Assembly: GCA_014859615.1 (NCBI GenBank)
Contig: JACUTX010000002.1
Location: 1-35,603 of the forward strand
DNA: 35,603 nucleotides
Source of the DNA: Desulfuromonadales bacterium
GTDB taxonomy: Bacteria > Desulfobacterota > Desulfuromonadia > Desulfuromonadales > UBA2294
Direction of reading: 5' to 3'
Shown here: positions 5,506 to 26,300 of the stretch, piece after piece
How positions within the stretch are numbered: the first letter of the stretch is position 1
How the letters are laid out: the number at the start of each line of letters is the position of its first letter
Notes under the pieces: generated by a model
What the model saw: the letters and a program-made list of their open reading frames with translations, nothing else
What the model was told of the DNA's origin: nothing
Database searches by the model: none
Translations under genes and position numbers: made by a program

Positions 5506-5521
5506 TGGTATGTAATTTGCT
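5506..5521 (+). promoter_or_regulatory. Sigma-54 (-24/-12) promoter
   Basis: TGGTATGTAATTTGCT matches TGGCAC-N5-TTGCW, with the invariant GG and GC separated by exactly 10 nt. It lies 85 nt upstream of ATG 5606 and directly downstream of a sigma-54 activator gene. Confidence 0.6.
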
Positions 5522-5605: not shown

Positions 5606-6676
5606 ATGCATCGTCGCTTACTCACTGTTTTTTTCTCCCTGCTGCTGGTTACTGTTTTTGGTTTTGCTGTTTTTAAAGCCGAAAGCAATATACCGGTCGA
5701 TCGACTCTATGCTCTGCACCTCAGCCAGGCGCCGACCGATAGCGAATGGGCGAGAGCTCTGCCGCGGCTGATCGAGACGCGAGGAGGAAAGAAGAACGAG
5801 CGTTCACGTCTGGGTGATATCGATGCGGATACCGTTCACACCTCGACCGCTTCCTGCCATCACGGCTCTTCCCTCCCTGATCCGATCATTGTTGACATGC
5901 GGGCTTTTTATACGGATCAGGAGCTGTTTCTTCGCCTTGAGTGGCGTGATGCGACAAAAGACGATGCGATGAATCAGTGGACTTTTGACGGCACGGTCTG
6001 GTCCTCAGCTGCGTCTTTTGAGGATGGATTTGGTCTGATGTGGGACGCGCGCGGATCCTTCCCCCGTTTCAACTGTTCTTATGCTTGTCATATCAGCGAT
6101 TTCGGTGTTTCGGCCGATAACTTTCATGCCCGCAACAAGATGAAGATGGCCCGCCCTGACACGACTCTCGATCTCTGGAACTGGAAAGCGGGACGAACCG
6201 GACAGCTCGGCTTTGTTGATGATCGTCTGATTGATGAAAAGGGGATCCGCGGCGACCTTCCCGGTGAGCTGTTTCGTCCCAACTCTCTCTATTTTAACGC
6301 CGGTTCTAGTCGACAACCTTTTACACAAGGGGATGCGCCGCTCATCGACGCTGCCGGTGATTCTATTGAAGCGGTTTTTCGCATGGCCGGTTCAACCGTC
6401 CCCGGCTATCTGACCGACCGACCGGTCGGCAGCCGGGCTGATATTTCCGCTTTTTCCCGGCATGAAGAGGGGCGTTGGATCGTGGTTTTAAGCCGTAAAC
6501 TCAACACGGGCGATCCGAAAGATGTTGTTTTCCTGCCTGGAGATGAATCAGGTGTCGCATTTGGTCTGTCTCTTATGGATAATACCCTGATTGAGCATTT
6601 TGCCTCAGGGAGTGAGGAACGGCTGGTGTTGATGCCGCGTGATATTACTGTTGTACAGGGAGAAGAATATAAATGA
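5606..6676 (+). CDS. Exported EB_dh-like (ethylbenzene dehydrogenase gamma / cytochrome c-552-DMSO reductase-like) heme-binding domain protein
   Basis: N-terminal signal or anchor (MHRRLLTVFFSLLLVTVFGFAVF). Segments typical of the EB_dh/DOMON-like heme domain as I recall it: MRAFYTDQELFLRLEWRDATKDD and LDLWNWKAGRTGQLGFVDD. The functional call comes from motif recollection, not from a search. Confidence 0.65.
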   Translation: MHRRLLTVFFSLLLVTVFGFAVFKAESNIPVDRLYALHLSQAPTDSEWARALPRLIETRGGKKNERSRLGDIDADTVHTSTASCHHGSSLPDPIIVDMRAFYTDQELFLRLEWRDATKDDAMNQWTFDGTVWSSAASFEDGFGLMWDARGSFPRFNCSYACHISDFGVSADNFHARNKMKMARPDTTLDLWNWKAGRTGQLGFVDDRLIDEKGIRGDLPGELFRPNSLYFNAGSSRQPFTQGDAPLIDAAGDSIEAVFRMAGSTVPGYLTDRPVGSRADISAFSRHEEGRWIVVLSRKLNTGDPKDVVFLPGDESGVAFGLSLMDNTLIEHFASGSEERLVLMPRDITVVQGEEYK

Positions 6677-7416
6677 TACGAATGCGTCTGTTGTTGCTCT
6701 GTCTTCTGGTTTTCGGGTTATTGCCGGGGTGTACTGAACCATCGAACGATTCCGTTTCGGTGGAGCTCGGTCATATCAGCGGGACAATTCTTACCCCCCT
6801 AGAAGGGACGACCCTTAATGTTTACAAAAAAGGGATGGATCTGTATGGTCCGCCTTTCACCTCTTCCAATCTGACCGGAGAAGACGGGAGTTTCGATCTC
6901 GCATTGCCTCCGGGTGAATATATCGCCGTCGCTCGCAAACGCAAAAACGGGGAGCTCTCCGGTCCGGTTCTGGCCGGAGATAACCGGAGTGACTTCATCA
7001 CCTTGACCGTTAATGGCGATCAGCAGGGTCTGTCGATCATTGCTCCGTTCAAGGTCGGTGACAGCCGTCGCCTGACTGCGGAGGTTGCACAGACGCAGAC
7101 GGGACTTTCAGGCCTTATTCTCGATAGTGACGGTCGTCCTGTCGAAGGGGCGAGGGTTCATGTTTATGATCATGTGCAGATGTCTGAGCGGCCGAAATTT
7201 GTTTCGGAAAAGACGGCACCAAACGGAAGTTATCTGATCTATCTCCCCAAAGGGGGGACCTATTATCTTGCGGCCCGCGACAAATTTGGCGGACCGCCCA
7301 AACTCGGTGATCTTTACGGTCGTTACGATCAGGGGACGATTGAACCGTCCGCAGTGGTGATCGAGGATGGGAAAATTCTGCAAAATATCGATATCACCGT
7401 AACCAAGGTCTGGTAA
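6673..7416 (+). CDS. Lipoprotein with carboxypeptidase-regulatory-like beta-sandwich repeats
   Basis: Lipobox LLPGC. Two repeats of the CarboxypepD_reg type (ISGTILTPLEGTTLNVY and LSGLILDSDGRPVEGARVHVY). ATGA overlap with the upstream gene. Confidence 0.65.
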   Translation: MIRMRLLLLCLLVFGLLPGCTEPSNDSVSVELGHISGTILTPLEGTTLNVYKKGMDLYGPPFTSSNLTGEDGSFDLALPPGEYIAVARKRKNGELSGPVLAGDNRSDFITLTVNGDQQGLSIIAPFKVGDSRRLTAEVAQTQTGLSGLILDSDGRPVEGARVHVYDHVQMSERPKFVSEKTAPNGSYLIYLPKGGTYYLAARDKFGGPPKLGDLYGRYDQGTIEPSAVVIEDGKILQNIDITVTKVW

Positions 7417-8315
7417 TGAAGCGACTATTGACTCTTCTGCTCCTGAGTCTGTTGATCTCAGCCTGCCAGAATCAGAGAACTCTCGATCTGGATACTCTGG
7501 CCAGACAGGCCCGTGGCGGTGATGTCTCGGCAGGGCGGGAATTGGTTCGGCTTTTCGCCACGGCGACGCCCGAAGTCAATGACCGGCTTTATCGGATTGT
7601 TATTGAATCGGGGGATGCTGTTATCGAACCTCTGCTCGAAAATATCAAATCCCGACATCCTGAGCAGATGGAGAGGGTGATCGCTGCCCTCGGTACACTT
7701 AAGGTCGTTCGGGCTGTTCCGACGATTGCAGAGGTGTTGGCTGATACAGCTTACAAGCGCCGTTATGTTGCTGCCTGGGCGCTTGGTGAAATAGGGGCCC
7801 CGGATGGAATACCGGCGCTGATCAGGGCGCTGGATGACGATGTTATGCAGGTCAGACGTTATGCCACACGTTCCCTTGTCAAATTTAATCAGGGAGCAGT
7901 CGATCCGCTGATTGCAGCACTCGATACTTCGTCCGAACGCTCTACTGCCGCGATCATTCGCGCTCTTGGTGATATCGGCGATAAACGTTCACTCGATCCG
8001 TTGCTCAGGCACGTCTCTGGCCCGGTTCGCAATGAGGCGTTTCTGGCCCTTGGCAAGCTGCGTGATTCGCGTGCCGAGCAGGCGCTGATTCAAGGGTTGT
8101 CCGATACAGAGTGGCAGGTTCGCATGAACGCGGCGATGGCCCTCGGGTCGCTCGGCACCTCCCTGTCGGCAGCGCCTTTACGGCTCAGTCTTGAGGACGA
8201 GGTGATGGTTGTCCGTGAATGGTCAGCCCGTTCGTTGTCGACGATTACCGGTCATGCCGTCAATTACAGAGATGCGTCCGGCGAGATGGTCGCTCCTTAT
8301 ACGGTCTATCATTAA
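7416..8315 (+). CDS. HEAT-repeat (PBS lyase-like) lipoprotein
   Basis: Lipobox LLISAC. Repeated units of the form VRxxAAxALGxIGxxxAIPALIxALxD (for example VAAWALGEIGAPDGIPALIRALDDDVMQVRRYATRSL). TAATG overlap with the upstream gene. Confidence 0.8.
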   Translation: MKRLLTLLLLSLLISACQNQRTLDLDTLARQARGGDVSAGRELVRLFATATPEVNDRLYRIVIESGDAVIEPLLENIKSRHPEQMERVIAALGTLKVVRAVPTIAEVLADTAYKRRYVAAWALGEIGAPDGIPALIRALDDDVMQVRRYATRSLVKFNQGAVDPLIAALDTSSERSTAAIIRALGDIGDKRSLDPLLRHVSGPVRNEAFLALGKLRDSRAEQALIQGLSDTEWQVRMNAAMALGSLGTSLSAAPLRLSLEDEVMVVREWSARSLSTITGHAVNYRDASGEMVAPYTVYH

Positions 8316-8326
8316 GGCTGGAAACT

Positions 8327-9814
8327 ATGCGCGATAATATTTTTAACATCCCCGTTTTCGGTGCTTTACTCCGTTCCGTCTGGTTCTGGAGAATCGCCCG
8401 TCTGACGACTCTGGCTCTGACGGTGGCGATGATCGCCTGGGGCTGGCATCAGCATGCTGTTCCGGGTCTTTCGCTCCCTGATCCGTTGATGTATACAAAC
8501 CTGACCAATCATCTCTTCTGGGTCTGGTGGCTGATGGGGATCGTCTTTATCGCTCTGCTGTTCGGTCGGCTCTGGTGTTCGGTCTGCCCGCTCGGCTGGC
8601 TGAACGGTATCGTCTCCCGCTTCGGTTTGCGCCGTGAGATGCCGGTCTGGTTGCGTAATTTTATATCGGTGACGCTGGTTCTGGTCATTTTACAACTGGC
8701 GATTTATTTTTTTAAACTCCATCGATTTCCGGACTATACGGCGATTCTGCTGACCTTTTGTCTGCTGTTGACGATCGGCGCCGGTCTGTTGTATCGGCAG
8801 CGGGCCTTTTGTCTTCTGTTCTGCCCGGCCGGTGCGGTGTTTGGACTTTATGCCCGGGTGGCACCGTTTCAGCTTCGTGTCAAGCAGCCGTCGGTCTGTG
8901 CCGGTTGTGATAGCCAGCGCTGTGTCTCGGAGCCGCAGGAGTGGCAAAAACATCAACTTGGCGGCTCTGTTCTTTATCGGCATCGGCGTCTCGATGGTTG
9001 CCCGGTCGATCTTGTTCCGGCTGCGCTCGCCGATAGTGCCGATTGCACCTTTTGTCTCAACTGCTTCCATAATTGCGATAAAGAGAATATAAAAGTCGGC
9101 TTTCGCCCCTGGCTGGCAGATATCGAGACCGGCCTGCGCAGGAGTGAAACGCTTTTTTTTCTGGTTCTGTTCGGTATGTTGACCGCCAATTTCAGCAAGG
9201 TTTATGTTGAGCTGCGTCAGCTGCTCTTCTGGCTGCCGCAGGAGGTGGCCGTGCTCCTCGGCTGGCAGGAGTCGGGATACTATGTTCTGGCGGCGATCTG
9301 GGTCGCTCTGCTCTTGCCGTCCCTTTTGATGCTGCCGGGTTATCTGATTTTACGTGCTGCCGCGATCAGAACGACCTCGATAACTGACCCCGATGCCGGG
9401 CCCGGCCTTTTTGTTCATGATGAACGGTCCGGTTTCTGGAGTTCCGTCGGCCAGTTGGCTCTGCCGATGATTCCGGCACTCCTCACCGCTCATGCTGTTT
9501 TGGCGATCGTCAAGATTAACGCCAAGGCCGCTTATCTGCCGTTTGCTCTTGTCGACCCTTCCGGCGTTAAGAGCTTTCTGGCGATGAATGTCATGCAGAC
9601 GGTCGCAACTCCGGGCGCTGTGATCTCCCTCGATATTCTTAAATGGGTTGTTCTTCTTCTGTTGATCGTCGGTCTGTTCCTCTCCTTTCTGGTTGCCAAA
9701 AAGGTTGCTGTCCGACAAGGTCGCCCCGGCTTTTTACCAGCAGCGATTGTTTCGGTTCTGATTCCGACCGTCTGCTATTTTTCAACGGTGATTGAATGGC
9801 TATTCGTCCGCTGA
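8327..9814 (+). CDS. Integral membrane polyferredoxin (NapH/MauN-like 4Fe-4S binding protein)
   Basis: Many hydrophobic segments. NapH-type membrane-proximal Cys motifs (CSVCPLGWLNG and LLFCPAGAVFG) plus ferredoxin-like clusters (CAGCDSQRC and CTFCLNCFHNC). The track ORF starts at 8219 inside the HEAT gene. ATG 8327 (MRDNIF...) is the first start after the upstream stop. Confidence 0.75.
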   Translation: MRDNIFNIPVFGALLRSVWFWRIARLTTLALTVAMIAWGWHQHAVPGLSLPDPLMYTNLTNHLFWVWWLMGIVFIALLFGRLWCSVCPLGWLNGIVSRFGLRREMPVWLRNFISVTLVLVILQLAIYFFKLHRFPDYTAILLTFCLLLTIGAGLLYRQRAFCLLFCPAGAVFGLYARVAPFQLRVKQPSVCAGCDSQRCVSEPQEWQKHQLGGSVLYRHRRLDGCPVDLVPAALADSADCTFCLNCFHNCDKENIKVGFRPWLADIETGLRRSETLFFLVLFGMLTANFSKVYVELRQLLFWLPQEVAVLLGWQESGYYVLAAIWVALLLPSLLMLPGYLILRAAAIRTTSITDPDAGPGLFVHDERSGFWSSVGQLALPMIPALLTAHAVLAIVKINAKAAYLPFALVDPSGVKSFLAMNVMQTVATPGAVISLDILKWVVLLLLIVGLFLSFLVAKKVAVRQGRPGFLPAAIVSVLIPTVCYFSTVIEWLFVR

Positions 9815-10278
9815 TTCTAATGTTGAGCTTTTTGCTCCTGATGCTTTTGACCGTACCGGTTTTCGCCTGTTTTGGGCCGAAGCTCTATCTCGGTATCGGG
9901 GAGAGCCCGACGGATCAGGTTTTGACCTCGTTTGTCGCCATCTTCATCAAGGAGACGACCGGAATCGATGTGGAGCGAACCCCTTTAGCCGGGCGCGATC
10001 CGCAAGCTGAGATTGCTGCTGAAAAAATCGATTTTTCCTTTATACCAAAGCATAGAGACGGTTCTGTGGTCCTGATGGAAATTACCGGTTTTTCACCCTT
10101 GATTACCGGCCCGCGAATCGATAACGACCTGCAGTTTACTACGGTGCGAACAACTCTGGCCCGTCTTGAGAAGAAGCTGACCGCCGGTCATGTGCAAGCA
10201 TTAGTGGCAGAAGTTGACACCGGGGCGTTGGCAATGGATGTCGTGCGGCATTTCCTGATTGTGCAGAGATGGATCTGA
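9796..10278 (+). CDS. Small lipoprotein, function unknown
   Basis: 160-aa ORF with a signal peptide and lipobox (LLTVPVFAC). It overlaps the upstream gene by 19 nt. I recognise no family. Confidence 0.55.
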   Translation: MAIRPLILMLSFLLLMLLTVPVFACFGPKLYLGIGESPTDQVLTSFVAIFIKETTGIDVERTPLAGRDPQAEIAAEKIDFSFIPKHRDGSVVLMEITGFSPLITGPRIDNDLQFTTVRTTLARLEKKLTAGHVQALVAEVDTGALAMDVVRHFLIVQRWI

Positions 10279-11087
10279 TGCGTCATTTTTTAATATTAAT
10301 TCTTCTCACTCTCACGGCCTGTTCGCCAGCCGCATTTGTGGCAGAGCCTTATCTGTCACCACCGCCGGCACCGGTTTTGTTGGCACCGATCAGCGGTGTG
10401 TTGACCGGTGAAACAGTTCTTCAGGGTGAATATCTTCTGGTGGGCGACCTGCTGATTCCGAAAGGGAGTCGTCTCATCATCAAATCTGGCAGCAGCATAT
10501 ATGTGCGCCGGGCAGAGACGACCAAGATCGATCCGGAGTTTCTCTCTTCAATGACCGAGCTGCTGATTCGCGGCTCAATTCAGATCGAGGGGACGCCTGC
10601 GGAGCCGGTACGGTTTGTTCCCGAACAGAAGACGACGCTCGCTGATCCGGCCTGGGCGGGGATTATCCTTGATACCGCAGAGGCTTCTTCGATTCGATAC
10701 GCTCAAATAAGTGGCGCCGAGACCGGTCTGTTGATGATTGATGCCGAGGTCGTTCTGAGCGACAGTCGACTTGAAATGAATCGTTACGGCGTGGTGATTC
10801 AGTCTGGATCTCCTCTGCTGGAACGTAATCTGATCAGCAATGGCGAGGGGGGCCTGTTTGTCTGGCAGGGTGCAGCGCCGAAACTGGTTGATAATATTAT
10901 CCGCCAGAATGAAGAAGAGGGGATCACGATCGATCGGTCGAGTCGTCCCGTTTTAAGTCGTAATCGCTCGCAGCAGAATGCGATCGGGCTGGTCTCTGTG
11001 ACTCTCTTTACGTCCGATGCTCTGCAGCTCTCTGAAAATACGACCGCGTGGCGTCAGCTGCTTTCCCGGCAGGAGTTGAAAAAATGA
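10269..11087 (+). CDS. Lipoprotein with right-handed parallel beta-helix repeats (NosD-like)
   Basis: Lipobox LTLTAC. Periodic repeats of about 22 residues of the PbH1 type (SRLEMNRYGVVIQSGSPLLERNLISNGEGGLFVWQGAAPKLVDNIIRQNEEEGITI). The N-terminal region parallels the next gene. Start could be ATG 10269 or 10278. Confidence 0.7.
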   Translation: MDLMRHFLILILLTLTACSPAAFVAEPYLSPPPAPVLLAPISGVLTGETVLQGEYLLVGDLLIPKGSRLIIKSGSSIYVRRAETTKIDPEFLSSMTELLIRGSIQIEGTPAEPVRFVPEQKTTLADPAWAGIILDTAEASSIRYAQISGAETGLLMIDAEVVLSDSRLEMNRYGVVIQSGSPLLERNLISNGEGGLFVWQGAAPKLVDNIIRQNEEEGITIDRSSRPVLSRNRSQQNAIGLVSVTLFTSDALQLSENTTAWRQLLSRQELKK

Positions 11088-12163
11088 TCCGCTTCCTGCT
11101 TATTGTCATTTTGATTCTGATCGGAACTCCGTCTCTGGCCGATCAAAAATATACAGGGGAAAATACCATCTGGAAGGATACCGCCTGGGAGGGTGATATT
11201 CTGATTGACGGTATCGTCACCGTCGCCCCCGGCGTGACCCTGGAGGTTCGTCCCGGCACTACGGTCCGTTTTACCCGGTCTGACAGTAATCAGGATCAGA
11301 TCGGTGAGCATGAAATTTTTATCCAGGGGCGTTTTATTGCCCAAGGTACGGCTGAACAGCCGATTCTCTTTACCTCGGCAGAAGAGCGTCCGACCCCCGG
11401 TGATTGGGGGGCGATCAACATGATGGCTTCGATGCAGGAAAACCTGTTGGAGCATTGTCGGGTTGAATATGCTTATCGCGGTTTTCATGCTCATTTTGGT
11501 CGGGGGAGACTCTCTTATTCGACCTTCGCTTACAACAGGCGCGCTGCCCAGTTTCAGGAGTCGGATGTGCAGATTAATGCATGTTTGTTCAGCGACAACC
11601 TCAATGGTCTCCAATTTCGGGATTCAACCGTGACGATCGCCGACTCAGTGGTTCGCGGGAGCTACTGGGGAGTTCGTACTGTAAATAGCCGGGTCACGAT
11701 GAACGATACGCTGGTTGAGAATAATCTGATCAACGGGATTAATTTCAAAGAATCTCAGGTTGAGCTGGACCGAATCACGGTTCGCAATAACCGCAGAGGT
11801 CTCTATCTGCAACGGACTTCCGGATCGATCGCCAGGTCGACCCTGATCGGGAATAGCGAACATGGTCTTTTTGCTGAAGAGTCAAATCTGACGGTCGACT
11901 CATCCCGAATTCTGGAAAATGGTCGCGCCGGAGTGCGGGTTTTGAATGCGACTCTGGTTTTGCAGGATAATCAGATCCTGGACAATGATCTCTTCGCCAT
12001 GATTAACGATGGGACAGAAGATCTGCAGATCGTCGGTAACTGGTGGGGCAGCTCTGATATTAATGAGATTGCGACTCTGGTTCGTGATGGTCATGATCGC
12101 AACGGTTTTGGCCTGGTGACGATTCAAACCCCCTTAACTGCCCCTCCTCAGCTGGCAGAGTGA
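11084..12163 (+). CDS. Secreted right-handed parallel beta-helix repeat protein (NosD-like), paralog of the upstream gene
   Basis: Signal peptide MIRFLLIVILILIGTPSLA. At least 8 PbH1-like repeats (for example VENNLINGINFKESQVELDRITVRNNRRGLYLQRTSGSIARSTLIGNSEHGLFAEESN). ATG 11084 forms an ATGA overlap with the upstream stop. The track start at 11048 lies inside the upstream gene. Confidence 0.75.
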   Translation: MIRFLLIVILILIGTPSLADQKYTGENTIWKDTAWEGDILIDGIVTVAPGVTLEVRPGTTVRFTRSDSNQDQIGEHEIFIQGRFIAQGTAEQPILFTSAEERPTPGDWGAINMMASMQENLLEHCRVEYAYRGFHAHFGRGRLSYSTFAYNRRAAQFQESDVQINACLFSDNLNGLQFRDSTVTIADSVVRGSYWGVRTVNSRVTMNDTLVENNLINGINFKESQVELDRITVRNNRRGLYLQRTSGSIARSTLIGNSEHGLFAEESNLTVDSSRILENGRAGVRVLNATLVLQDNQILDNDLFAMINDGTEDLQIVGNWWGSSDINEIATLVRDGHDRNGFGLVTIQTPLTAPPQLAE

Positions 12164-12185
12164 CTGATATTAAAGGACAGTGTGT

Positions 12186-13109
12186 ATGAGTTTAGGTATT
12201 AAATTTATTTTGAAATCAGTGGCGGGTCTCGTCTTGCTGCTGCTGACAGGATCTCTGTTGGCCGGTTGCGATGCGGTCAAGGAGCGACCAAAAATGCGGA
12301 TCGGGTACATGAACTGCAACAGTGAAGCGGAGACCAGGGCGCGATTCGGTCCGCTAAATGAGTATCTCTCACAAAAGCTTGGTATCGATTTTGAACTGGT
12401 CTCCGTCGATACCCAGGAGTTTGCCGAGCGTTTTCATAAAGGCGAGTTCGATTTTACCCATACCAATTCACTGCTCTATATTATTTTGCGGGAACAGAAG
12501 AATCTGCGTCTTCTGGCGACGGAAAAACGGGGTCAATACGGCCCCAGAACAGCCGGAACCCTGATTTCGCGAAAAGATAGCGGGATAAAGACCCTCGCCG
12601 ACCTGAAGGGGAAGTATCTGTTGTTCGGACCGCAGCTCGCTCCGTCGGGATTTCTGGCCCAGTATGATCTGATGCTGCAAGCCGGAATCAATCCGGAGCA
12701 GGATCTCGCCTATTACGGAATTCCGCGCGGTTCCTTCAAGCACGAGAAAGTTGTTTACGGGGTCTATTTCGGTAAATATGATGTCGCCGCCGCACCGGCT
12801 CTCGATCTGGAGTTGATGATCCGGGACGGCAAAATCACGGCGGATGATTTCAATATTATCGCTCAGAGTGAAATCTTCCCTTACTGCACCTTTGGCGCTG
12901 CCCGTCAGATTCCGGATGAGCTGGCTGAAAAGTTCAGGATGTTACTTCTCGATCTGACCCCTGAATCGACGGTTACTTACCAGAGTGAAACGGTCAAGGT
13001 TCTCGATTCAGCCTGGATTGACGGCTTTGCTCAACTGGAGGATGCCGATTACGATCCGATCCGGCGAATGGCCAAAAATGCTAACATGCCCCCTTATCAG
13101 GAGTTTTAA
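12186..13109 (+). CDS. PhnD-like (phosphate/phosphonate ABC-type) periplasmic substrate-binding lipoprotein
   Basis: Lipobox LLAGC. The N-terminal core RIGYMNCNSEAETRARFGPLNEYLSQKLGIDFELVSVDTQEFAERFHKGEFDFTHTN resembles the PhnD/Phosphonate-bd family. ATG 12186 follows AAGGA at suitable spacing, whereas the track uses GTG 12180. Confidence 0.75.
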   Translation: MSLGIKFILKSVAGLVLLLLTGSLLAGCDAVKERPKMRIGYMNCNSEAETRARFGPLNEYLSQKLGIDFELVSVDTQEFAERFHKGEFDFTHTNSLLYIILREQKNLRLLATEKRGQYGPRTAGTLISRKDSGIKTLADLKGKYLLFGPQLAPSGFLAQYDLMLQAGINPEQDLAYYGIPRGSFKHEKVVYGVYFGKYDVAAAPALDLELMIRDGKITADDFNIIAQSEIFPYCTFGAARQIPDELAEKFRMLLLDLTPESTVTYQSETVKVLDSAWIDGFAQLEDADYDPIRRMAKNANMPPYQEF

Positions 13110-13111
13110 TC

Positions 13112-13648
13112 TTGTTTCGTGATTTTTTCGATAGAGCGCACTGGTTTGCTTTAGGCGGATTAGTCATTGCTCTTTTTTACCTGCTCTTCTTCTCTCCGGT
13201 TGACGGGTCGACAGTCAGAAAACAGGATAAACGCCTCGAACTGGTTCTGCAGGAGAAGGCCAGAATCGCCTTTCTGCTCGAAACCTATGCTCCGGTCGAA
13301 GAACTTGCCGCTGCCGGGAATCGGGCGGCGGCTTTGTTGAAACTCGAAGAACTCGAACGGGATTTTCCCGGAGAAGCTCATGCTTCTATTCTGCGTGGTT
13401 CTCTGTTGCTGGAGCAGGGGGCGATCGCCGAGGGGATTGCAGCTTATGTGCTCGGTGTACGGCAGAATGGTGATTATATCGATGCGCGCAGTCTGCTCGG
13501 TCGGCATCGGGAGATAACGGCTCTGGTTGAAGCAGAGCTCCCTCTTATCAAGGTCAGGGTCGAAAAATCCCCAAACAGCCGGACGTGGAACGAAGCGTTG
13601 AACAACATCTATTATCTGCAGAGTCGTCTGGCCGGAGGGTGCGAATGA
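13112..13648 (+). CDS. Membrane-anchored TPR-like protein, function unknown
   Basis: TTG start 8 nt after GGAG. One N-terminal hydrophobic helix (WFALGGLVIALFYLLFF), then helical-repeat sequence (GEAHASILRGSLLLEQGAIAEGIAAYVLGVRQNGDY). The family assignment is weak. Confidence 0.5.
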   Translation: MFRDFFDRAHWFALGGLVIALFYLLFFSPVDGSTVRKQDKRLELVLQEKARIAFLLETYAPVEELAAAGNRAAALLKLEELERDFPGEAHASILRGSLLLEQGAIAEGIAAYVLGVRQNGDYIDARSLLGRHREITALVEAELPLIKVRVEKSPNSRTWNEALNNIYYLQSRLAGGCE

Positions 13649-14718
13649 GACGATTCCTGACCGACCGTCACATCTGGCTGGTTATTGTTTCGGGGGGAAT
13701 TCTCGGAACATTCGGGGTGTTGCTCGCATTTTGGGGGAACCCTGAACACTCCGGCATCTGCATCTCCTGCTTTCTGGAAAATACCGCCGGAGCTCTCGGT
13801 CTGCACCCCGATACCCGGATGCAGTATCTGCGGCCGGAACTCCCCGGTTTTATCCTCGGCGCCATGGCGAGCGCTCTGGTTGGCAAAGAGTTTAAAACCC
13901 GCGGCGGCAAGGCGCCGATTTTTCGCTTTATGTCCGGTTTTTTTCTGCTTGTCGGCTGTACGGTTTTTATCGGTTGTCCGATTAAACTTTTTTTGCGACT
14001 GACCGCCGGAGATATGACTGTCTGGTCCGGCCTGCTCGGCCTTTTGGTCGGGATCGGTATCGCTACTCGCGGCTTGACCTCCGGCGTTTATATCGATCGG
14101 GGTGAGACGCAGCGCGGTGGCGGGGGGGTGCTGGTTCCGCTGCTGTTTCTCTTTTTTTTGCTGCTGCTGTTTGTCCGGCCGGCGTTTATCCTCTTTTCAG
14201 AACGGGGGAGTGCGGCTCAGCATGCTCCGGTACTGATCTCCCTGCTGGTCGCTCTGCTGATCGGTGTTTTGGCGCAAAGAAGCCGATTCTGCATCACCGG
14301 TGCGCTGCGAGATCTGTTCCTGATCGGTTTTCGGGCACCGCTCTTCTGGGGGCTTGTCGCCATGGTTCTGGCTGCGGTTGTTACCAGTCTCTTGACCGGG
14401 TCGTTTCGACTCGGTCTGTATGGCCAGCCCGGTGCACATTTTGACATGTTCTGGAGTTTTGCCGGGATGCTTCTGGTCGGCTGGATGTCGGTACTGATTG
14501 GCGGCTGCCCGTTTCGACAGCTGGTGAAGGCTGGTGAAGGGGATACCGACGCCGGAATGGTGGTCCTCGGGATGTTGACCGGCGCCGGAATTGTTCAATC
14601 GTGGAATATTTCAGCGACAGCGGCGGGGGTCTCTTTTTATGGACAGGTGGCTGTCCTGGTCGGATTGATCTTTGTCCTGACCACATCACTACTGTTTCGC
14701 GAGCGGGCGACCGCATGA
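13645..14718 (+). CDS. YedE/YeeE-family membrane protein (sulfur/selenium compound transport)
   Basis: Polytopic membrane protein with the family's conserved Cys-containing loops (GNPEHSGICISCFLENTAG and RSRFCITGALRD). ATG 13645 forms an ATGA overlap with the upstream stop. The track start at 13585 lies inside the upstream gene. Confidence 0.85.
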   Translation: MRRFLTDRHIWLVIVSGGILGTFGVLLAFWGNPEHSGICISCFLENTAGALGLHPDTRMQYLRPELPGFILGAMASALVGKEFKTRGGKAPIFRFMSGFFLLVGCTVFIGCPIKLFLRLTAGDMTVWSGLLGLLVGIGIATRGLTSGVYIDRGETQRGGGGVLVPLLFLFFLLLLFVRPAFILFSERGSAAQHAPVLISLLVALLIGVLAQRSRFCITGALRDLFLIGFRAPLFWGLVAMVLAAVVTSLLTGSFRLGLYGQPGAHFDMFWSFAGMLLVGWMSVLIGGCPFRQLVKAGEGDTDAGMVVLGMLTGAGIVQSWNISATAAGVSFYGQVAVLVGLIFVLTTSLLFRERATA

Positions 14719-14739: not shown

Positions 14740-15054
14740 GTGCAACGACTGAAGCGAAATCCCGATATTGTCTGGCGGGTTGAAAAACAGCGGGAAGCCT
14801 CGGTTCTCAAGGCTCTTGAAGCGGGATCCGATCCGGGTGAGCAGGGGACGGTTCTGCTGATTGTCAGCGGAACCATGCATCAGCTGAATATGATTGGCGG
14901 CACTATCTGGCAATCTGTCGATGGGAGTCGATCGCAAAAGCAGCTGGTCGATCTGCTGGCCGCTGAGTATGATGTGGACCGTGCAGAACTTGAAACTGAT
15001 GTCTGTCTCTTCATTGAAGATCTGATACAGAGAGGGTGGTTGATTTATGACTGA
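14740..15054 (+). CDS. PqqD-family peptide chaperone (RiPP recognition element protein)
   Basis: 104 aa with a GTG start 5 nt after GAGG. Typical PqqD pattern: NPDIVWRVE ... LLIVSGTMHQLNMIGGTIWQSVDGSRSQKQLVDLLAAEYDVDRAELETDVCLFIEDLIQRGWL. Confidence 0.85.
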   Translation: MQRLKRNPDIVWRVEKQREASVLKALEAGSDPGEQGTVLLIVSGTMHQLNMIGGTIWQSVDGSRSQKQLVDLLAAEYDVDRAELETDVCLFIEDLIQRGWLIYD

Positions 15055-16051
15055 GCCGTTTATCGAGCTGTTCTCTGCTCCTTTGACTTTCAACTGGACA
15101 CTCTCTTTCCGCTGTAATTTCAGTTGTCAGCACTGTTACAGCCGCGAAGAGATGAGCGACGAGTTGTCGACAGAGGAGAACTTTCGGGTGATCGATGTTC
15201 TGGCTGAGCAGCAGGTTCCGTTTATTAATTTCGGCGGTGGTGAGCCTCTGTTATCTGCTGATCTCTATAAAATTGCAGCTTATGCAGTCAGTAAAGGGCT
15301 GAATCCGTCGATGAACTCAAACGGCTGGTTGCTCGATGAATCGGCGGCCGTCCGTTTGAAAGAGGTTGGCTTCAGAAGTGTCGGCATCAGTCTGGACAGC
15401 GCCAAAGCGGATCTGCACGATGATTTTCGTTGTATGCCCGGAGCGTATGATCGTGCTGTCAACGCGCTGCAGGCGTTGCAGAAAGTCGGTCTGCGCAGTA
15501 CGCTAAGTGCCGTCATCTCCCGGATTAATTATAAAAATTTTCGTGATATTCTCGATCTGGCCCGTGAGAACGGCGTTGCGCAAGTCTATCTGCATAATTT
15601 CAAATGCAGCGGGCGCGGGTTCAAAAATCGCGAAGAACTCGATCTGACTCCGCAAGAGTGGAAAGCTTTTTATATTGAGGCGCTGGCGGTCAAAAATGAG
15701 ACTACCGATATCGATATCTCGTTCGATGATCCGGTGATCGCCTCTCTCCCCGGCTATGCTGAAAACTCGTTGGTCAAGGGGAGCAGTTGTGGTAAACTTT
15801 CTCTGCATTTGCGCCCGGATGGTCACATCACCCCGTGTGGATTCATCCCGCTGGTGGTCGGTCATATTCTCAGGGATGATTTTCAGACACTCTGGCAGAA
15901 ATCACCGATTCTGGTCAAAATGCGCAACAAGGAAGCCAAGGGGAAATGTGGTGATTGCGGATCGTTTGAATCGTGTCTGGGCGGTTGTACAGCGCGTGCA
16001 TTTGCCACGACCGGTGATTTCAGCGAGCCCGACCCGCACTGCTGGGTTTAA
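15047..16051 (+). CDS. Radical SAM/SPASM domain peptide-modifying enzyme
   Basis: CxxxCxxC SAM-cluster motif (CNFSCQHCY) and the GGGEPLL SAM-binding motif. Complete 7-Cys SPASM signature (CGKLSLHLRPDGHITPC ... CGDCGSFESCLGGC ... HCW). Overlaps the PqqD gene by 8 nt. Confidence 0.92.
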   Translation: MTEPFIELFSAPLTFNWTLSFRCNFSCQHCYSREEMSDELSTEENFRVIDVLAEQQVPFINFGGGEPLLSADLYKIAAYAVSKGLNPSMNSNGWLLDESAAVRLKEVGFRSVGISLDSAKADLHDDFRCMPGAYDRAVNALQALQKVGLRSTLSAVISRINYKNFRDILDLARENGVAQVYLHNFKCSGRGFKNREELDLTPQEWKAFYIEALAVKNETTDIDISFDDPVIASLPGYAENSLVKGSSCGKLSLHLRPDGHITPCGFIPLVVGHILRDDFQTLWQKSPILVKMRNKEAKGKCGDCGSFESCLGGCTARAFATTGDFSEPDPHCWV

Positions 16052-16101
16052 CCTGCACAAAGAGAGAAGAGTTCTCTTCTAAGCAAAAAGGAGGTGTACC
16101 G

Positions 16102-16158
16102 ATGAAAAAGTATCAAAAGCCGATGGTTGTCGGATCTGCAAACGTTCATCCTTGCTAA
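16102..16158 (+). CDS. Candidate 18-aa precursor peptide MKKYQKPMVVGSANVHPC (below the 60-aa floor of the supplied ORF track)
   Basis: ATG 16102 to TAA 16156-16158. It is preceded by AAAAAGGAGGTG (GGAGG at 16090-16094, 7-nt spacing), the best anti-SD complement I noticed in the window. It lies between the radical SAM/SPASM gene and its SPASM paralog and is followed by a GC hairpin. There is no homology evidence, so this is a call from genomic context. Confidence 0.5.
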   Translation: MKKYQKPMVVGSANVHPC

Positions 16159-16166
16159 ACATCATC

Positions 16167-16194
16167 GGGCAGCTTTACGCTGCCCTTTGCATTT
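16167..16194 (+). terminator. Hairpin and T-rich tail after the small ORF (possible partial terminator or attenuator)
   Basis: GGGCAGC (16167-16173), TTTAC loop, GCTGCCC (16179-16185): a perfect 7-bp GC-rich stem. It is followed by TTTGCATTT, an interrupted U-tract, which suggests leaky rather than full termination. Confidence 0.4.
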
Positions 16195-16212
16195 AATGGA
16201 CAAAACCTTTAT

Positions 16213-17163
16213 ATGGCAATCGATCTGCTCGATACCCCGCTACGCGTGACCTGGGACCTCTGTTCCCCCGTGCAGCCTGTTTCTGCCGCCGATACGCTCG
16301 AGATTGCAGCGCGTCTGGTTGAAGCACAGCTGTTCTATGTCACCCTGGAGAGGACCCCGCTGCTCCATCCTCTCTTCCGGGATGTGGCGACAACACTTGC
16401 CGCTGCCGGTTGTCAGCTCCTTGTGACCTGCTGCGGCTCTGTTGCCGAATTAAGTGAGCTCAAAGAGCTGCCGGATCATTCCCAGCTCCTGCTCGATGTC
16501 GGCGGCTTTGTGACGACTGATGGGGTTGACTTCACAGCGCTGGAACAGACCTGCTCTACGCTATGCAAGCGGGGGGTAAACTACGGACTGACCCTCACTC
16601 CGACCCCGGAAAGACTCGGTATGATCGGGGCTCTCCTCCGGTTTTGTCTCCATCGTCAGATTCCGCGTTTTAAGTTGCCGAATATGCGTATTAATGATAA
16701 TTTTTCGCCAACGTTGCGCAGCGACCTGCTGCACGCCGGGGATATTGAACGTTTTCGTCAACTTGCGGTCGATTTTCCTGATTTTAGTGGCGAGCTTCAG
16801 CTCGATGTGCACGATCTTTTTCTCTGGGAGATCCTGTTCCCAAACGGAGGCGCTCCCCGGAGTGAATACGGTGGATGTCAGGCGGCAAACAGTCTGGCGC
16901 ATATTGACTGCACAGGAATCGTTCACCCCTGTCTCTCATGGCCGCAACCGCTCGGCTCACTTTTGAGAGATTCTTTTTATGCAATCTGGCAGGATGTGCC
17001 CAGGCAGAAGATCCGGGATTCTATTGCTGTAACTCCGGACGGATGTCAAAGATGTCGCGATTATAGTCTCTGTTTTGGCGGCTGTCGCGGTCTCTCCCGT
17101 CTCGAAGAGTTGTGGCAGGGGCGTGATCTGATGTGTGCAGGGGAGTGCAAACTGTCTGACTGA
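16213..17163 (+). CDS. SPASM-domain protein, a radical SAM paralog lacking the SAM-binding cluster
   Basis: The N-terminus aligns with the upstream enzyme (PLRVTWDLCSPVQPVS versus PLTFNWTLSFRCNFSCQHCY), but CxxxCxxC is gone and GGGEPLL has become TLERTPLL. The C-terminal SPASM cysteines are intact (GGCQAANSLAHIDCTGIVHPC ... CQRCRDYSLCFGGC ... CAGEC). Confidence 0.8.
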   Translation: MAIDLLDTPLRVTWDLCSPVQPVSAADTLEIAARLVEAQLFYVTLERTPLLHPLFRDVATTLAAAGCQLLVTCCGSVAELSELKELPDHSQLLLDVGGFVTTDGVDFTALEQTCSTLCKRGVNYGLTLTPTPERLGMIGALLRFCLHRQIPRFKLPNMRINDNFSPTLRSDLLHAGDIERFRQLAVDFPDFSGELQLDVHDLFLWEILFPNGGAPRSEYGGCQAANSLAHIDCTGIVHPCLSWPQPLGSLLRDSFYAIWQDVPRQKIRDSIAVTPDGCQRCRDYSLCFGGCRGLSRLEELWQGRDLMCAGECKLSD

Positions 17164-17199
17164 AATCTTTTAATGTTAATTTAAATGGAAATCCATTTT

Positions 17200-18354
17200 A
17201 TGCTGATTTATCTCGACAATTCAGCCACCTCCTTTCCAAAGCCGGAAGCGGTTTACAGGGCTGTCGATAGCGCTTTTCGTGACTGTGGCGCCAATCCGGG
17301 CCGCGGCGGTCATCGCATGTCTCTGGATGCCTCCCGTCTGGTCTTTTCTGCCCGCGAGACCATCGCCGATTTTTTTTCGATTGCTGATGCTTCACGATTG
17401 ATCTTTACCTCGGGAGCGACCGAGGCGATCAATACGGCGCTGTTCGGTCTTCTGAATCCCGGTGATCATGTGGTCACCACGGCTATGGAGCACAACTCTG
17501 TCCTCAGGCCGCTTCGCGTTCTGGAAAAATCCGGCGTTTCGCTCTCAATCGTTGATGCTGACGCATCCGGCTCTGTTTCTGCTTCGTCGATAGCAGCCGC
17601 CTGCACCGACGCCACCCGGATGGTTGTGATGACTCACTGTTCCAATGTCACCGGGACTTTGATGCCGATTGAGACGGTGGGCGAATTTTGCCGGGGGAAA
17701 AATCTGCTTTTTTTGGTTGATGCCGCCCAGACGGCGGGGCATATTCCGATTGATGTCGATGCCTTGGGGGTCGATCTTTTGGCTCTTCCAGGACACAAGG
17801 GTCTGTTTGCACCACCCGGTATCGGTTGTCTCTACGTACGGGAAGGGGTGCCGCTGCGTCCGCTGATACATGGCGGGACCGGGGGACAGTCGGAACAGGA
17901 CGAGATGCCCCTGCAGATGCCGGAACGCTTTGAAAGCGGAACCCTCAATACCCCCGGGATTGCCGGACTTAAAGCTGGTATCGAATTTATTACCGAAGTC
18001 GGTCTCAATGCGATTATGGCTCATGAACAGCAGCTGGTCGACCTGCTGGTGCGTGGTTTAAACTCTATTGATGGCGTGACGGTCTATGGCAAAGCCGGCA
18101 GCGGTCACCACGGGGGGGCCGTCTCATTTACCTGCCAAAACAGGGATCCATCCGAGATCGGCTTTATTCTCGATCAGGACTATGACATCATGGTCAGGGT
18201 CGGTCTGCATTGTGCCCCTGGTGCCCACCGGATGATCGGGACTTTTCCGGCCGGGACGGTTCGGGTCAGTCCCGGTTACTTTACGACAATTGATCAGATC
18301 GAACTGTTGATTCAGGCAGTTCATAAGATTTCTCTCGGCCAGAATCGATTTTGA
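17200..18354 (+). CDS. Class V aminotransferase-fold cysteine desulfurase family protein
   Basis: N-terminus IYLDNSATSFPKP. PLP-lysine context LPGHKGLFAPPG. Catalytic Cys loop VRVGLHCAPGAH. Start is ATG 17200 (MLIYLDN) or 17185, and neither has a clear SD. Confidence 0.88.
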   Translation: MLIYLDNSATSFPKPEAVYRAVDSAFRDCGANPGRGGHRMSLDASRLVFSARETIADFFSIADASRLIFTSGATEAINTALFGLLNPGDHVVTTAMEHNSVLRPLRVLEKSGVSLSIVDADASGSVSASSIAAACTDATRMVVMTHCSNVTGTLMPIETVGEFCRGKNLLFLVDAAQTAGHIPIDVDALGVDLLALPGHKGLFAPPGIGCLYVREGVPLRPLIHGGTGGQSEQDEMPLQMPERFESGTLNTPGIAGLKAGIEFITEVGLNAIMAHEQQLVDLLVRGLNSIDGVTVYGKAGSGHHGGAVSFTCQNRDPSEIGFILDQDYDIMVRVGLHCAPGAHRMIGTFPAGTVRVSPGYFTTIDQIELLIQAVHKISLGQNRF

Positions 18355-23357: not shown

Positions 23358-26300
23358 ATGAAGGTTGTTGTGACATCGCACGATCGTATGTCTGTTCGGG
23401 ACGATTTTGCTGAAAAAGTTGATCAGACCATCGCTTTGTTGAAACAGGCGGATGATAAAGAGCCGCACGATCTTCTGGTTCGTTTTGTCGATCTTCTGGC
23501 CGAAGCGACTCCGAGTCACTACCTGACACAACAGACCCCGCAACAGATTGCTTCCCTGACACGGCAATTTTATAAATTGATCGCATTGCGGTGCACGGAT
23601 GTTGCCGTCCATTGCCTGAAGGTAGAGGAATCGGGCGGTGTTTTTCTTTTATCAAACTCGGCGGATGCCCCCTTTCTGATTCATTCGATCCAGCTCTGCC
23701 TGAATCGACTCCACGTCCATTTCCGGGTTGTAACGCATCCGATCCTCCATTTTGAACGGAAGAAGGGGGAGATTGTTTCGATTAACGATGCGACAGAAAA
23801 CAGTCCGGCTGAATCTTTCATTGTGATTGAACTGGAAGGGCGTGCAGTCGCTGAGTGTGAGGAGGTCAAAGAGAAAGTCAGGGGGGTGATTGAGAAGGTG
23901 CTCAAGGTTGCGGCAGCGCAAAAATTGATTGCTGCGCGTATCGATGCCGTTGCCGCCTTGAATGTCTGCGCGTCATATCGCGATTTTTTTTCCTGGTTAC
24001 AAAACGGCAACATCAATTTGTTTGCCTGCCAGACCGTCAAAATAGATCCGGCTTCTAGCGGCAAGCCGCGCCAGGTAATTTTATTACAGGAGCAATCCGG
24101 GGGGTTGCTCGATCTTTTTCCGGACCAGATCTCCTCGACGCATGATCTTGAAGAGAATCCTTTTCTCAGTGCGATTCTCGACCGGACTGATGCCATAGGG
24201 ATTGAAATTCTCGACAAGAAAAGCCCGATTCTGCGTGATGAACGCCTGATCTATCTCGGTATTCGAGAAACGCTCGCTGACGGGAGTTTGATCGAGCACG
24301 GTTTTATCGGCCTGCAGACCGAACAGGCATTGCTTGAAGCATCGTTTAACGTTTTAGCCCTGCGCCATAAATTTGAGCTGGCTCTCAAGAGACTGCGTAT
24401 TCCCGTCGATTCATACGATTATCGAAAAGTTCTCTCTATTCTCAACGCCTATCCAAAAATTGATCTCTTTTTTATGGATCAGGAGACGCTGGTTCATACG
24501 GTGCGCACTTTTGCCCTGATGCAGCGCCATGGGGCAGTGCGGGTCATTCCCGCCTTTGGTCTGGCGATCCGGGGCTTGACCCTGGTTATTATTATGCCAA
24601 AGCGGTTTTTCACCGATCAGATTCTGCAAAGGATCGAATTTTTCTTCTGCCGATATTTTCTCGTCAGTGATTTGACCACCCGCGTCATCCCTTTGTCTAA
24701 CGATTACCTCACCCTGCATATCAACCTCTTCCCGCAGAGCGAAGAGGTTGTGATCAACATCGATCGGATTGAACGGAGCCTGACGCATATTGCCGAACCG
24801 TGGGATGAAAAACTCCATAAACTGATGGATCGCAGTTACGGGGAGCAGGAGGGCGCAGAGCTCCTGAAGAAATATCATGACGCCTTCAGTCAGGATTATC
24901 AAAATTTGATCCACCCGCGGTTTGCTGTCAGGGATATTCAGAATCTTGAAGAGGTGCTCACTAATGGTGAGGAACGGGTCGATCTCTGGGGGCCGTTTAC
25001 CGGCAAGGTCGATTTTTACCGTCTGCAGTTCTACAGTATCAGGGAGAGTTATCTCAACGATCTGATGCCGTTTCTGGAAAATCTCAATCTTTCGGTTATT
25101 GAGGAGATCGATTTTGAGATTTTGACGGCATCAGGTGTTGTGTATATTAAATCTTTTTCGGTATTGAACCGTGATGATCATGCCCTCAAACTCTCTTCAA
25201 TCCGTGAAAATCTTCTCGAAACACTGCAGGCGTTGCGGCGTCGCAAGGTGGAAAATGACTATCTGAACCGGCTTATGGTGTTGACCGGTCTGACCTGGAA
25301 ACAGATCGATATCTTTCGCGGCTATCGCAACTACTATTTTCAGATCGGTTGCCCCTTTACCAAAAGGAGGGTCGCTTTTTCCCTGATTAATAATCCTCGT
25401 GTCACGTTGCTTCTTTACCGCTATTTTGAGGCGCGTTTCGCGCCGAATCCGAACTGGGCAGATATTCTGGATCGCGAAGAGCACGGAATGATGCCGATTC
25501 GTCTGGAACTGGCCGAACTGCTCGAATCGGTCAGCGATATTAATGAAGATAAAATTCTGCGTACATTTTTTAATCTGATCGATTCTACCGTCCGGACCAA
25601 TTTTTTTCAGCGGCAATTTTCAGACGACTATTTTTTCTCATTCAAAATCAGCGCTCTGGGGATTATCGATATGCCTGCACCCCGGCCACTTTACGAAGTT
25701 GCTGTTCATTCCGCTATGATGGAAGGGATTCATCTGCGCGGTGGTCTGGTCGCTCGTGGCGGTATTCGCTGGTCGGATCGACCGGATGATTACCGAACCG
25801 AAATTCTCGGTCTGATCAAGACGCAGATGACTAAAAATGCCCTGATTGTCCCGGTCGGCTCAAAGGGCGGATTTGTCGTCAAGACCCCTTATACGAGCCG
25901 TGAAGAGGGGGCTGCTTTGTCGAAAGCCGCTTATCAGATTTTGATGCGTGGTCTGCTCGATCTGACCGATAACCGGATCGGCGGGGAGATTGTCCCTGCC
26001 GCCGGTCTGATCACTTATGACGATAGTGACCCGTATCTGGTTGTTGCTGCCGATAAAGGGACGGCGCATCTGCCGGATACGGCCAACGCCGTTTCGGCTG
26101 AATACAACTTTTGGCTCGGTGATGCTTTTGCCAGTGGCGGATCGCAGGGGTATGACCACAAACGGCTCGGCATCACGGCGCGGGGCGCCTGGATCTCTGT
26201 ACAGCGTCATTTCAGGGAGATGGGGATCGATATTCAGACACAGCCGTTTACCGTCGTCGGGATCGGCGATATGAGCGGTGACGTCTTTGGTAACGGGATG

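Follow-up and report, generated by a model that had tools for sequence, protein, structure and literature searches.

The closest described relatives of the locus analysed here are systems in which a radical SAM/SPASM enzyme acts on a peptide. PqqA, the precursor of pyrroloquinoline quinone (PQQ), is about 23 amino acids long. MftC, the enzyme of the mycofactocin system, acts by oxidative decarboxylation of the last residue of MftA. The maturases of sactipeptides and ranthipeptides link a cysteine sulfur to a carbon of another residue, and QhpD cross-links the small peptide subunit of a periplasmic heme-containing enzyme. In PQQ biosynthesis the chaperone PqqD is described as binding the N-terminal leader of PqqA, and the reactive residues lie near the C-terminus (PMC10906245). 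GeoRSP (TIGR04302-TIGR04304) is a curated, named system without a substrate, recognised by the gene order PqqD, radical SAM/SPASM enzyme and SPASM protein without radical SAM motif. This gene order is present in contig JACUTX010000002.1 of a Desulfuromonadales bacterium (assembly GCA_014859615.1), of which we analysed positions 1 to 35,603, referred to as the window. Between the second and the third gene of the cassette lies an 18-codon gene, which is conserved as a peptide and is a candidate for the GeoRSP precursor. Such a conserved candidate makes the system testable by co-expression and mass spectrometry.

The 18-codon gene is located on the forward strand at positions 16102-16158; it starts with ATG at 16102, ends with the stop codon TAA (16156-16158) and translates to MKKYQKPMVVGSANVHPC. 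As described in the first-pass annotation, which was made from the sequence alone, it follows the stop of the radical SAM/SPASM gene (ending at 16051) after a gap of 50 nt, and it has a Shine-Dalgarno sequence with 7-nt spacing. The latter reads AGGAGGTG (16089-16096, forward strand); its AGGAGG core ends 7 nt ahead of the ATG, and the sequence occurs four times in the window, with 0.7 occurrences expected. An open reading frame (ORF) of 18 codons starting with ATG is, taken alone, not improbable by chance in this 161-nt spacer, and a stable hairpin is found in the same region. The frame might thus be a chance opening that owes its conservation to an RNA or DNA element, an explanation to which we give practically no credence in view of the codon analysis below; it is conservation that sets this ORF apart.

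A genome collection with one genome per species was scanned with an alignment of the radical SAM/SPASM protein, which yielded 80 loci with 87-50% identity in this protein; one of them (L035) is incomplete and uninformative, which leaves 79 informative loci. Directly 3' of the radical SAM/SPASM gene, 54 of the 80 loci encode a peptide of the form MKKY-x-KP-x3-G-S-S-(N/S)-V-H-P-C-stop. A hidden Markov model (HMM) of the peptide gives at least 34.8 bits for the 54 positive loci versus at most 10.7 bits for all others. The positive loci span 87% to approximately 55% identity in the radical SAM/SPASM protein and include Nitrospirae and unclassified lineages. Residues M1, K2, Y4, K6, P7, H16, P17 and C18 are invariant, and the check proposed in the first-pass annotation, for a conserved short ORF with a Lys-Pro motif and a C-terminal Cys in this spacer, thus came out positive. 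The distance from the radical SAM/SPASM stop to the peptide start codon covers a range of -4 to +202 nt with the peptide unchanged, and the flanking spacers are conserved neither in length nor in sequence.

The 48 versions with 18 codons comprise 46 distinct DNA sequences, and the identical peptide MKKYMKPRVVGSSNVHPC is found in 21 loci, encoded by 20 different DNAs. Departures from the consensus amount to fractions of 0.064, 0.056 and 0.352 at the first, second and third codon position, respectively. Pairwise comparison of the codons showed 7743 synonymous versus 2590 non-synonymous differences, so that substitutions are mostly synonymous, which was a further point of the proposed check. Because third codon positions take up most of the variation and one peptide is encoded by 20 DNAs, purifying selection acts on the peptide: the 18-codon ORF is a real gene under selection for its amino acid sequence. 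The same codon pattern refutes a chance frame, against which the unconserved flanking spacers also argue; a search of the window against Rfam matched tmRNA alone and no family at the peptide region. All three stop codons, TAA, TAG and TGA, are in use across the peptide genes. Selenocysteine read-through at the stop was considered and rejected, both because of this stop codon usage and because no in-frame conservation extends past the stop.

Metagenome contigs were searched with the back-translated peptide gene as nucleotide pattern (ATGAARAARTAY-N3-AARCCN-N21-GTNCAYCCNTGY-stop), which gave at least 100 matches; the ratio of cassette to stand-alone copies among them is indicative only. Even where the pattern leaves the codons open, the matches encode V-V-G-S-S-N, which shows that these are true homologs and adds a further argument against a chance ORF. 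Among the matches listed, 46 are located inside cassettes; the copies outside cassettes are referred to as stand-alone copies.

The peptide had been called previously unlisted, and this holds: it belongs to no NCBIfam or Pfam family. A search of NCBIfam with the peptide gave no match at E <= 10, and in Pfam the sole match was DUF5972, to residues 1-10 with E=0.19. When ten versions, either N-terminally extended or 20 aa long, were looked up exactly in a collection of 15 billion proteins, a single one was recovered, an unnamed, over-extended ORF of 47 aa. NCBIfam contains no peptide model accompanying GeoRSP, and our literature search found nothing relevant on GeoRSP, TIGR04302/3/4 or a Geobacter PqqD/SPASM precursor. 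Two papers that were considered, on the selenocytochrome MccSep (2026) and on a Pelobacter genome, have no bearing on this locus. With 18 codons the genes fall under the limits of gene callers, for which reason the peptide family has gone without annotation everywhere, yet it is widespread in Desulfuromonadales and relatives. The window itself holds no second copy, the next best score with the peptide HMM being 6.5 bits.

Signals for expression accompany the gene. A Shine-Dalgarno core of at least 5 nt is found upstream of the peptide in 48 of 53, 39 of 46 and 49 of 52 cases in three sets of loci (approximately 90%). In the window, a terminator-like hairpin (GGGCAGC-TTTAC-GCTGCCC) followed by the T-rich tail TTTGCATTTA is located at 16167-16195 on the forward strand. 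Its stem-loop (16167-16185) begins 8 nt past the peptide stop and folds with a dG of -17.2 kcal/mol (z -3.9); it probably terminates transcription in part or stabilises the mRNA. Terminator-like hairpins within 100 nt past the stop were found for 31 of 53 and 24 of 46 cassette copies and, among the matches listed, for 47 of 53 stand-alone copies. The frequency behind peptide genes is thus 52-89% versus 6% in random control windows (17 of 265).

A short ORF with a strong Shine-Dalgarno sequence, a hairpin 8 nt later and then downstream genes is also what would be expected of a cis-acting leader or arrest peptide, whose translation would control termination at the hairpin and hence expression of the third cassette gene and the cysteine desulfurase gene behind it. 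Some termination-arrest peptides even end in a manner that recalls Pro-Cys-stop. We consider this explanation very improbable: stand-alone copies lie at the 3' ends of transcription units with nothing downstream to regulate, nearly all residues are conserved and not just a C-terminal arrest-like part, and in loci that lack the ORF the same downstream genes abut the radical SAM/SPASM gene.

The first gene of the cassette encodes a PqqD-family peptide chaperone of 104 aa (14740-15054, forward strand), a RiPP recognition element (RRE; RiPP, ribosomally synthesised and post-translationally modified peptide). It matches PF05402 with E=1.9e-16, and its best NCBIfam match is TIGR04302, the GeoRSP PqqD model, which is covered in full length with 81.1 bits, below the cut-off of 100. 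The gene overlaps the radical SAM/SPASM gene by 8 nt, an overlap already described in the first-pass annotation. The latter gene (15047-16051, forward strand) encodes a maturase of 334 aa, which matches PF04055 and PF13186 and exceeds the cut-off of the GeoRSP model TIGR04303 (430.7 bits, cut-off 400). It contains the CX3CX2C motif (C23, C27, C30) and seven SPASM cysteines, all of which are invariant in the alignment of the maturase family (A1). The closest solved structure is PqqE (6c8v), followed by SkfB as second-best match in the PDB; the decarboxylase BlsE is a further match. The top non-self NCBIfam scores are those of AhbD (208 bits), NirJ2 (192 bits) and MftC (184 bits).

The third gene (16213-17163, forward strand) encodes a protein of 316 aa that matches PF13186 and has TIGR04304 as its best NCBIfam match, with 93.3 bits (cut-off 300) and model positions 2-292 of 293 covered. 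It had been annotated as a SPASM paralog. The SPASM match and the paralogy hold, and a comparison with hhalign extends the assignment: the alignment of the third-protein family (A3), within which the window-type proteins can be aligned with the Geobacter-type ones, matches the maturase family over 300 columns with a probability of 99.7% (E=3.2e-25). Because the gap in this comparison coincides exactly with the CX3CX2C segment, the third protein is, judged by alignment, a full-length maturase homolog that has lost the SAM-cluster motif, that is, a pseudo-radical-SAM/SPASM protein. Seven SPASM cysteines are invariant in its family. At three loci in distant lineages (L056:1282-2163, L058:7002-7865 and L063:2004-2930) the gene after the radical SAM/SPASM gene differs; it encodes proteins of approximately 290-310 aa with the N-terminus DLPWR(I/F)HWK, which still align with the pseudo-radical-SAM family, and no peptide is present. 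These loci may represent a third type of cassette.

The proposed identity as a GeoRSP system is supported. All three GeoRSP models are the best matches of the respective proteins and the maturase passes its cut-off, whereas the PqqD protein and the third protein stay below theirs; the Pfam assignments expected for the three proteins were all recovered. A Geobacter-type locus, that of Geomobilimonas luticola (L078), lies above all three cut-offs with 162.5, 620 and 343.5 bits. Since only the maturase exceeds its cut-off in the window while the Geobacter-type locus exceeds all three, the cassette can be classed by the curated cut-offs as a divergent, Desulfuromonadales-type GeoRSP system. YedE, PhnD-like and NosD-like neighbours are common to both types of loci. 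The two types differ in the 18-codon gene, which lies between the radical SAM/SPASM and SPASM genes in the window type and has no counterpart within ±6 kb in the canonical type.

Compared with PQQ biosynthesis, the locus shares the free-standing PqqD chaperone beside a radical SAM/SPASM enzyme and a very short precursor. Both peptides have an N-terminus of the aromatic-x-K-P type, and reactive residues near the C-terminus, as in PqqA, are proposed here as well. The PqqA-like start noted in the first-pass annotation is indeed present, but the likeness is one of resemblance only: the Glu-x3-Tyr pair of PqqA is missing, the peptide having no Glu and only one Tyr at position 4, and its invariant part is V-H-P-C. 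The PqqE model TIGR02109 gives the maturase 113.6 bits versus a cut-off of 381, and no PqqB, PqqC or PqqF domains turned up in Pfam scans of the ORFs in the window.

The mycofactocin system likewise has a discrete PqqD-like chaperone, a radical SAM/SPASM enzyme and a short peptide, and the extreme C-terminus as target is what we propose for the candidate GeoRSP peptide. By analogy, a further likeness might lie in partner enzymes that depend on the product and are encoded nearby, and in a product that would be a cofactor and not an antibiotic. In contrast to MftA, which ends in GVY, the peptide ends in VHPC, and the MftC model TIGR03962 scores 184.1 bits versus a cut-off of 265. Equivalents of MftD, MftE and MftF (FMN dehydrogenase, creatininase-type peptidase and glycosyltransferase) are absent from the scans of the window, and the neighbours of the candidate peptide are extracytoplasmic cytochromes and not nicotinoprotein dehydrogenases.

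The sactipeptide and ranthipeptide maturases SkfB, CteB, PapB and NxxcB and the QhpD/QhpC system are also based on radical SAM/SPASM enzymes. Most of these enzymes carry a fused RRE, unlike the free-standing PqqD protein in the window. Their substrates have several Cys residues or CxxxD- and NxxC-like motifs, whereas the peptide has a single C-terminal Cys, for which the conserved residues S12, N/S14 and V15 might serve as acceptors. StsB (100 bits) and SkfB (79 bits) score far below their cut-offs, PapB is not listed among the matches, and the window contains no leader peptidase or exporter. SynChlorMet (ScmD, ScmE, ScmF) resembles the cassette in combining a PqqD-like protein with two paralogous SPASM proteins, and the pseudo-SAM/SPASM proteins of TIGR04347 are an earlier example of SPASM proteins devoid of a functional SAM cluster. 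The similarity to SynChlorMet is remote (ScmD 29, ScmE 110 and ScmF 103 bits), and both of its SPASM proteins are radical SAM enzymes, whereas the second GeoRSP paralog has lost CX3CX2C. By these comparisons the system would work like PQQ and mycofactocin, yet it fails the defining tests of both and has no recognised thioether motif. The cassette is of the GeoRSP type, with a real chance of representing a new peptide-derived cofactor system.

The ORF at 16102-16158 is probably the translated gene for the precursor, and hence the substrate, of the GeoRSP maturase; the substrate relationship is inferred from adjacency and from the presence of a peptide chaperone. Two features by which RRE-dependent modified peptides are recognised are found here, a PqqD fold in the cluster and a short maturase-adjacent ORF conserved as a peptide. 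The cassettes contain a PqqD chaperone and no other conserved small ORF, which suggests that the peptide is what the chaperone binds. The same conclusion is suggested by minimal modules in distant lineages, which consist of PqqD, radical SAM/SPASM and peptide genes only; there the paralog is missing and the peptide gene comes last.

According to this model, the PqqD-family chaperone would bind the basic N-terminal leader K-K-Y-x-K-P, as PqqD binds the PqqA leader, and would present the C-terminal core G-S-S-N-V-H-P-C to the maturase, which would then modify the C-terminal end by means of a 5'-deoxyadenosyl radical and its two auxiliary clusters. The chemistry would most likely take place at the terminal Cys, either as an intramolecular thioether cross-link or as an oxidative decarboxylation of the C-terminal residue like that of MftC or AhbD. 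The latter seems about as plausible as a thioether, since AhbD, NirJ2 and MftC are the nearest non-self families of the maturase and BlsE is among its matches in the PDB. The pseudo-radical-SAM paralog would be an accessory and non-essential partner, because it is absent from the minimal modules of other lineages. The strong Shine-Dalgarno sequence together with the hairpin past the stop would be expected to lead to the production of more precursor than enzyme.

Several observations weigh against a substrate role. No peptide is found within ±6 kb in 25 of the 79 informative loci, which comprise all nine Geobacter-type loci, four from Geothermobacter, L013, L025 and several from other phyla. 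In the Geobacter-type and Geothermobacter loci and in L013 and L025 the pseudo-radical-SAM gene abuts the radical SAM/SPASM gene. The loci in which the peptide is lacking thus include the canonical Geobacter-type GeoRSP loci, in which all three cut-offs are passed. An all-against-all comparison of ORFs of 12-70 aa from the nine Geobacter-type loci revealed only out-of-frame shadows of real genes, and a regular-expression search of the peptide-less loci for HPC*, VHP* and similar endings gave nothing meaningful. Only one Cys is present in the core, which shows no evident acceptor motif of the known thioether families, and NCBIfam and Pfam scans of the ORFs between 2993 and 34666 found no peptidase or ABC-exporter domain. 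Among the 100 metagenome matches listed, 54 have no radical SAM or SPASM gene nearby; given these copies far from cassettes, the peptide could act independently of GeoRSP. At the level of the genome, the peptide was seen together with a cassette in one isolate only, Geothermobacter hydrogeniphilus HR-1, which has a peptide-less cassette (L030) and, on another contig, a stand-alone copy after a CRTAC1 gene (L181). This arrangement fits a substrate encoded in trans. That no GeoRSP substrate model is listed may be due to the canonical Geobacter-type cassettes, the best HMM scorers, having no adjacent peptide.

The stand-alone copies carry their own strong Shine-Dalgarno sequence and have terminators behind them; the genes that come next are often convergent or unrelated. 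An upstream gene could be identified for 41 of the copies listed. Fifteen listed copies are located behind a gene for a secreted protein of the CRTAC1 family (FG-GAP / ASPIC-UnbV, approximately 488 aa), and approximately 20 behind genes for giant c-type cytochromes of 900-2500 aa, which contain 17-75 CXXCH/CX4CH heme motifs where they are full-length. Several copies are followed by a CarboxypepD_reg/DUF4198 gene, a homolog of the window gene at 6673-7416. In Geothermobacter ehrlichii a stretch of 4 kb contains two copies, one behind the gene for a cytochrome of 2273 aa and one behind a CRTAC1 gene. In Geoalkalibacter and Geothermobacter the CRTAC1 genes adjoin EB_dh, CarboxypepD_reg, HEAT and Fer4_5 genes, and a NosD-like gene lies near CRTAC1 in Geoalkalibacter ferrihydriticus and Desulfuromonas soudanensis; these are the families of the window genes at 5606-12163.

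Such surroundings would also suit a genuine small protein on which GeoRSP does not act. The 18-mer could be an unmodified subunit, an assembly factor, a metal- or heme-ligating peptide (by way of His-Pro-Cys) or a signalling peptide for the multiheme cytochromes and CRTAC1 proteins; its place in the cassette would be due to a shared regulon, and GeoRSP would act on something else. The cassette-free copies and the peptide-less canonical Geobacter cassettes would be accounted for in this way, as would the tetrapyrrole-modifying AhbD and NirJ among the nearest non-self families of the maturase. We nevertheless regard this as rather unlikely, since the presence of a PqqD-family chaperone calls for a peptide as substrate, and the cassettes offer no other conserved small ORF. 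In addition, the peptide lies between the radical SAM/SPASM gene and its paralog in genomes across phyla and is the last gene of the minimal modules. Dispersed additional precursor copies are, moreover, usual in RiPP and cofactor systems, for example the prochlorosins and multiple pqqA genes.

Further features were observed around the stand-alone copies. About a dozen of the upstream cytochromes share the C-terminal motif NCHR...GWN(K/R)(V/L)(T/A)P(W/G); they are found in L082-L177 (e.g. L102, L107, L138, L142 and L175) and in L185:1-650, contain 17-32 heme motifs where full-length, and the peptide gene starts 15-60 nt later. A second GC-rich hairpin (GGGGAC...GTCCCC, with a sequence that varies by locus) is present just 5' of the Shine-Dalgarno sequence in approximately 11 of 16 CRTAC1-associated copies (L112, L116, L123, L124, L162, L168 and others); its distance to the peptide start codon is approximately 15-50 nt. 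The ORF, flanked by stems on both sides, might be transcribed into a very short RNA that is processed or stabilised, or the upstream stem could be the terminator of the preceding gene. In three loci from Geoalkalibacter and Deferrisoma (L182:5621-8050, L186:4707-7145 and L187:4448-6886), a gene for a spermine-synthase-like protein of approximately 810 aa takes the place of the peptide after CRTAC1. In the two Geoalkalibacter loci it is followed by a CarboxypepD_reg/DUF4198 gene, and in L182 then by a NosD-like gene.

The cassette in the window is flanked by genes that recur with it. A YedE-family putative transporter for selenium or a sulfur compound (13585-14718, forward strand; TIGR04112, 393 bits, cut-off 200) ends 21 nt ahead of the PqqD gene and is linked to the PqqD and radical SAM/SPASM genes in nearly all loci and in every lineage examined, including those of the Geobacter type and of other phyla. 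Behind the pseudo-radical-SAM gene, a cysteine desulfurase family protein related to SclA is encoded (17185-18354, forward strand; TIGR01977, 470 bits, cut-off 377); its gene starts after 21 nt and is syntenic in the Desulfuromonadales loci. The SclA model itself (NF040779) reaches 342 bits, below its cut-off of 525. Linkage to YedE and to an SclA-like desulfurase suggests that the system is tied to sulfur or selenium.

Upstream of the cassette, a conserved block of nine genes was identified by domain searches (5606-13648, forward strand). It encodes, in this order, an EB_dh heme-b domain protein, a CarboxypepD_reg protein, a HEAT-repeat protein, a NosR/NapH-like Fer4_5 membrane polyferredoxin, a protein of 160 aa with unknown function, two NosD-like beta-helix proteins, a PhnD-like binding lipoprotein and a TPR protein. 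Synteny was read in flanks of ±6 kb, which rarely reach upstream of the Fer4_5 gene; from this gene (8219) onward, homologs of the block accompany the cassette in conserved order in the majority of the loci L002-L052, and most of the block thus goes with the cassette across Desulfuromonadales. Parts of the block recur in Geobacter-type (Geobacterales) loci and in loci of other phyla, where the YedE, PhnD-like and NosD-like genes stay linked to the PqqD and radical SAM/SPASM genes. The block resembles nos-type accessory machinery that lacks a known catalytic subunit.

The product is more likely a cofactor, ligand or carrier in extracytoplasmic redox, metal or chalcogen chemistry than an antibiotic. 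Copies far from cassettes beside cytochrome and CRTAC1 genes favour a cofactor or partner over an antibiotic-type RiPP, and the lack of a protease, an exporter and an immunity gene in the cluster of the window as well as the YedE and SclA-like neighbours point in the same direction. Together with the tight synteny of the cassette with NosD-like genes and the NosR/NapH-like polyferredoxin gene, this suggests that the product is cofactor-like or a partner and takes part in extracellular electron transfer or in the metabolism of sulfur or selenium. More tentatively, the mature 18-mer or a C-terminal fragment of it might be a new peptide-derived cofactor or carrier that is used extracytoplasmically by CRTAC1 proteins and giant multiheme cytochromes in Desulfuromonadales that respire metals and sulfur, with a maturation that couples radical SAM chemistry to sulfur or selenium supplied by YedE and the SclA-like desulfurase. 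We put this forward as a possibility that is still doubtful; a chalcogen or redox-active group installed post-translationally on the terminal His-Pro-Cys would be one example. If true, it would be the third ribosomal-peptide cofactor system after PQQ and mycofactocin, and one tied to extracellular electron transfer. Processes of this kind are relevant to biogeochemistry and bioelectrochemical systems, and if the link to the cytochromes holds, many cytochrome loci would need one more annotated gene.

The remainder of the window contains genes of other kinds. The conserved block is preceded by genes for a GAF-GGDEF protein and a sigma-54-dependent response regulator (2993-5411). A sigma-54-like -24/-12 site, TGGTATGTAATTTGCT, is located at 5506-5521, approximately 85 nt upstream of the gene starting at 5606; the pattern occurs 15 times in the window with 14.9 occurrences expected, which is not above chance. 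A large NAD-specific glutamate dehydrogenase of 1590 aa, unrelated to the peptide, is encoded at 23358-28130 on the forward strand (Bac_GDH_CD, 773 bits). Further downstream smpB (34190-34666) is followed by the full-length tmRNA gene (34810-35166; Rfam RF00023, 214.5 bits), an ordinary housekeeping pair.

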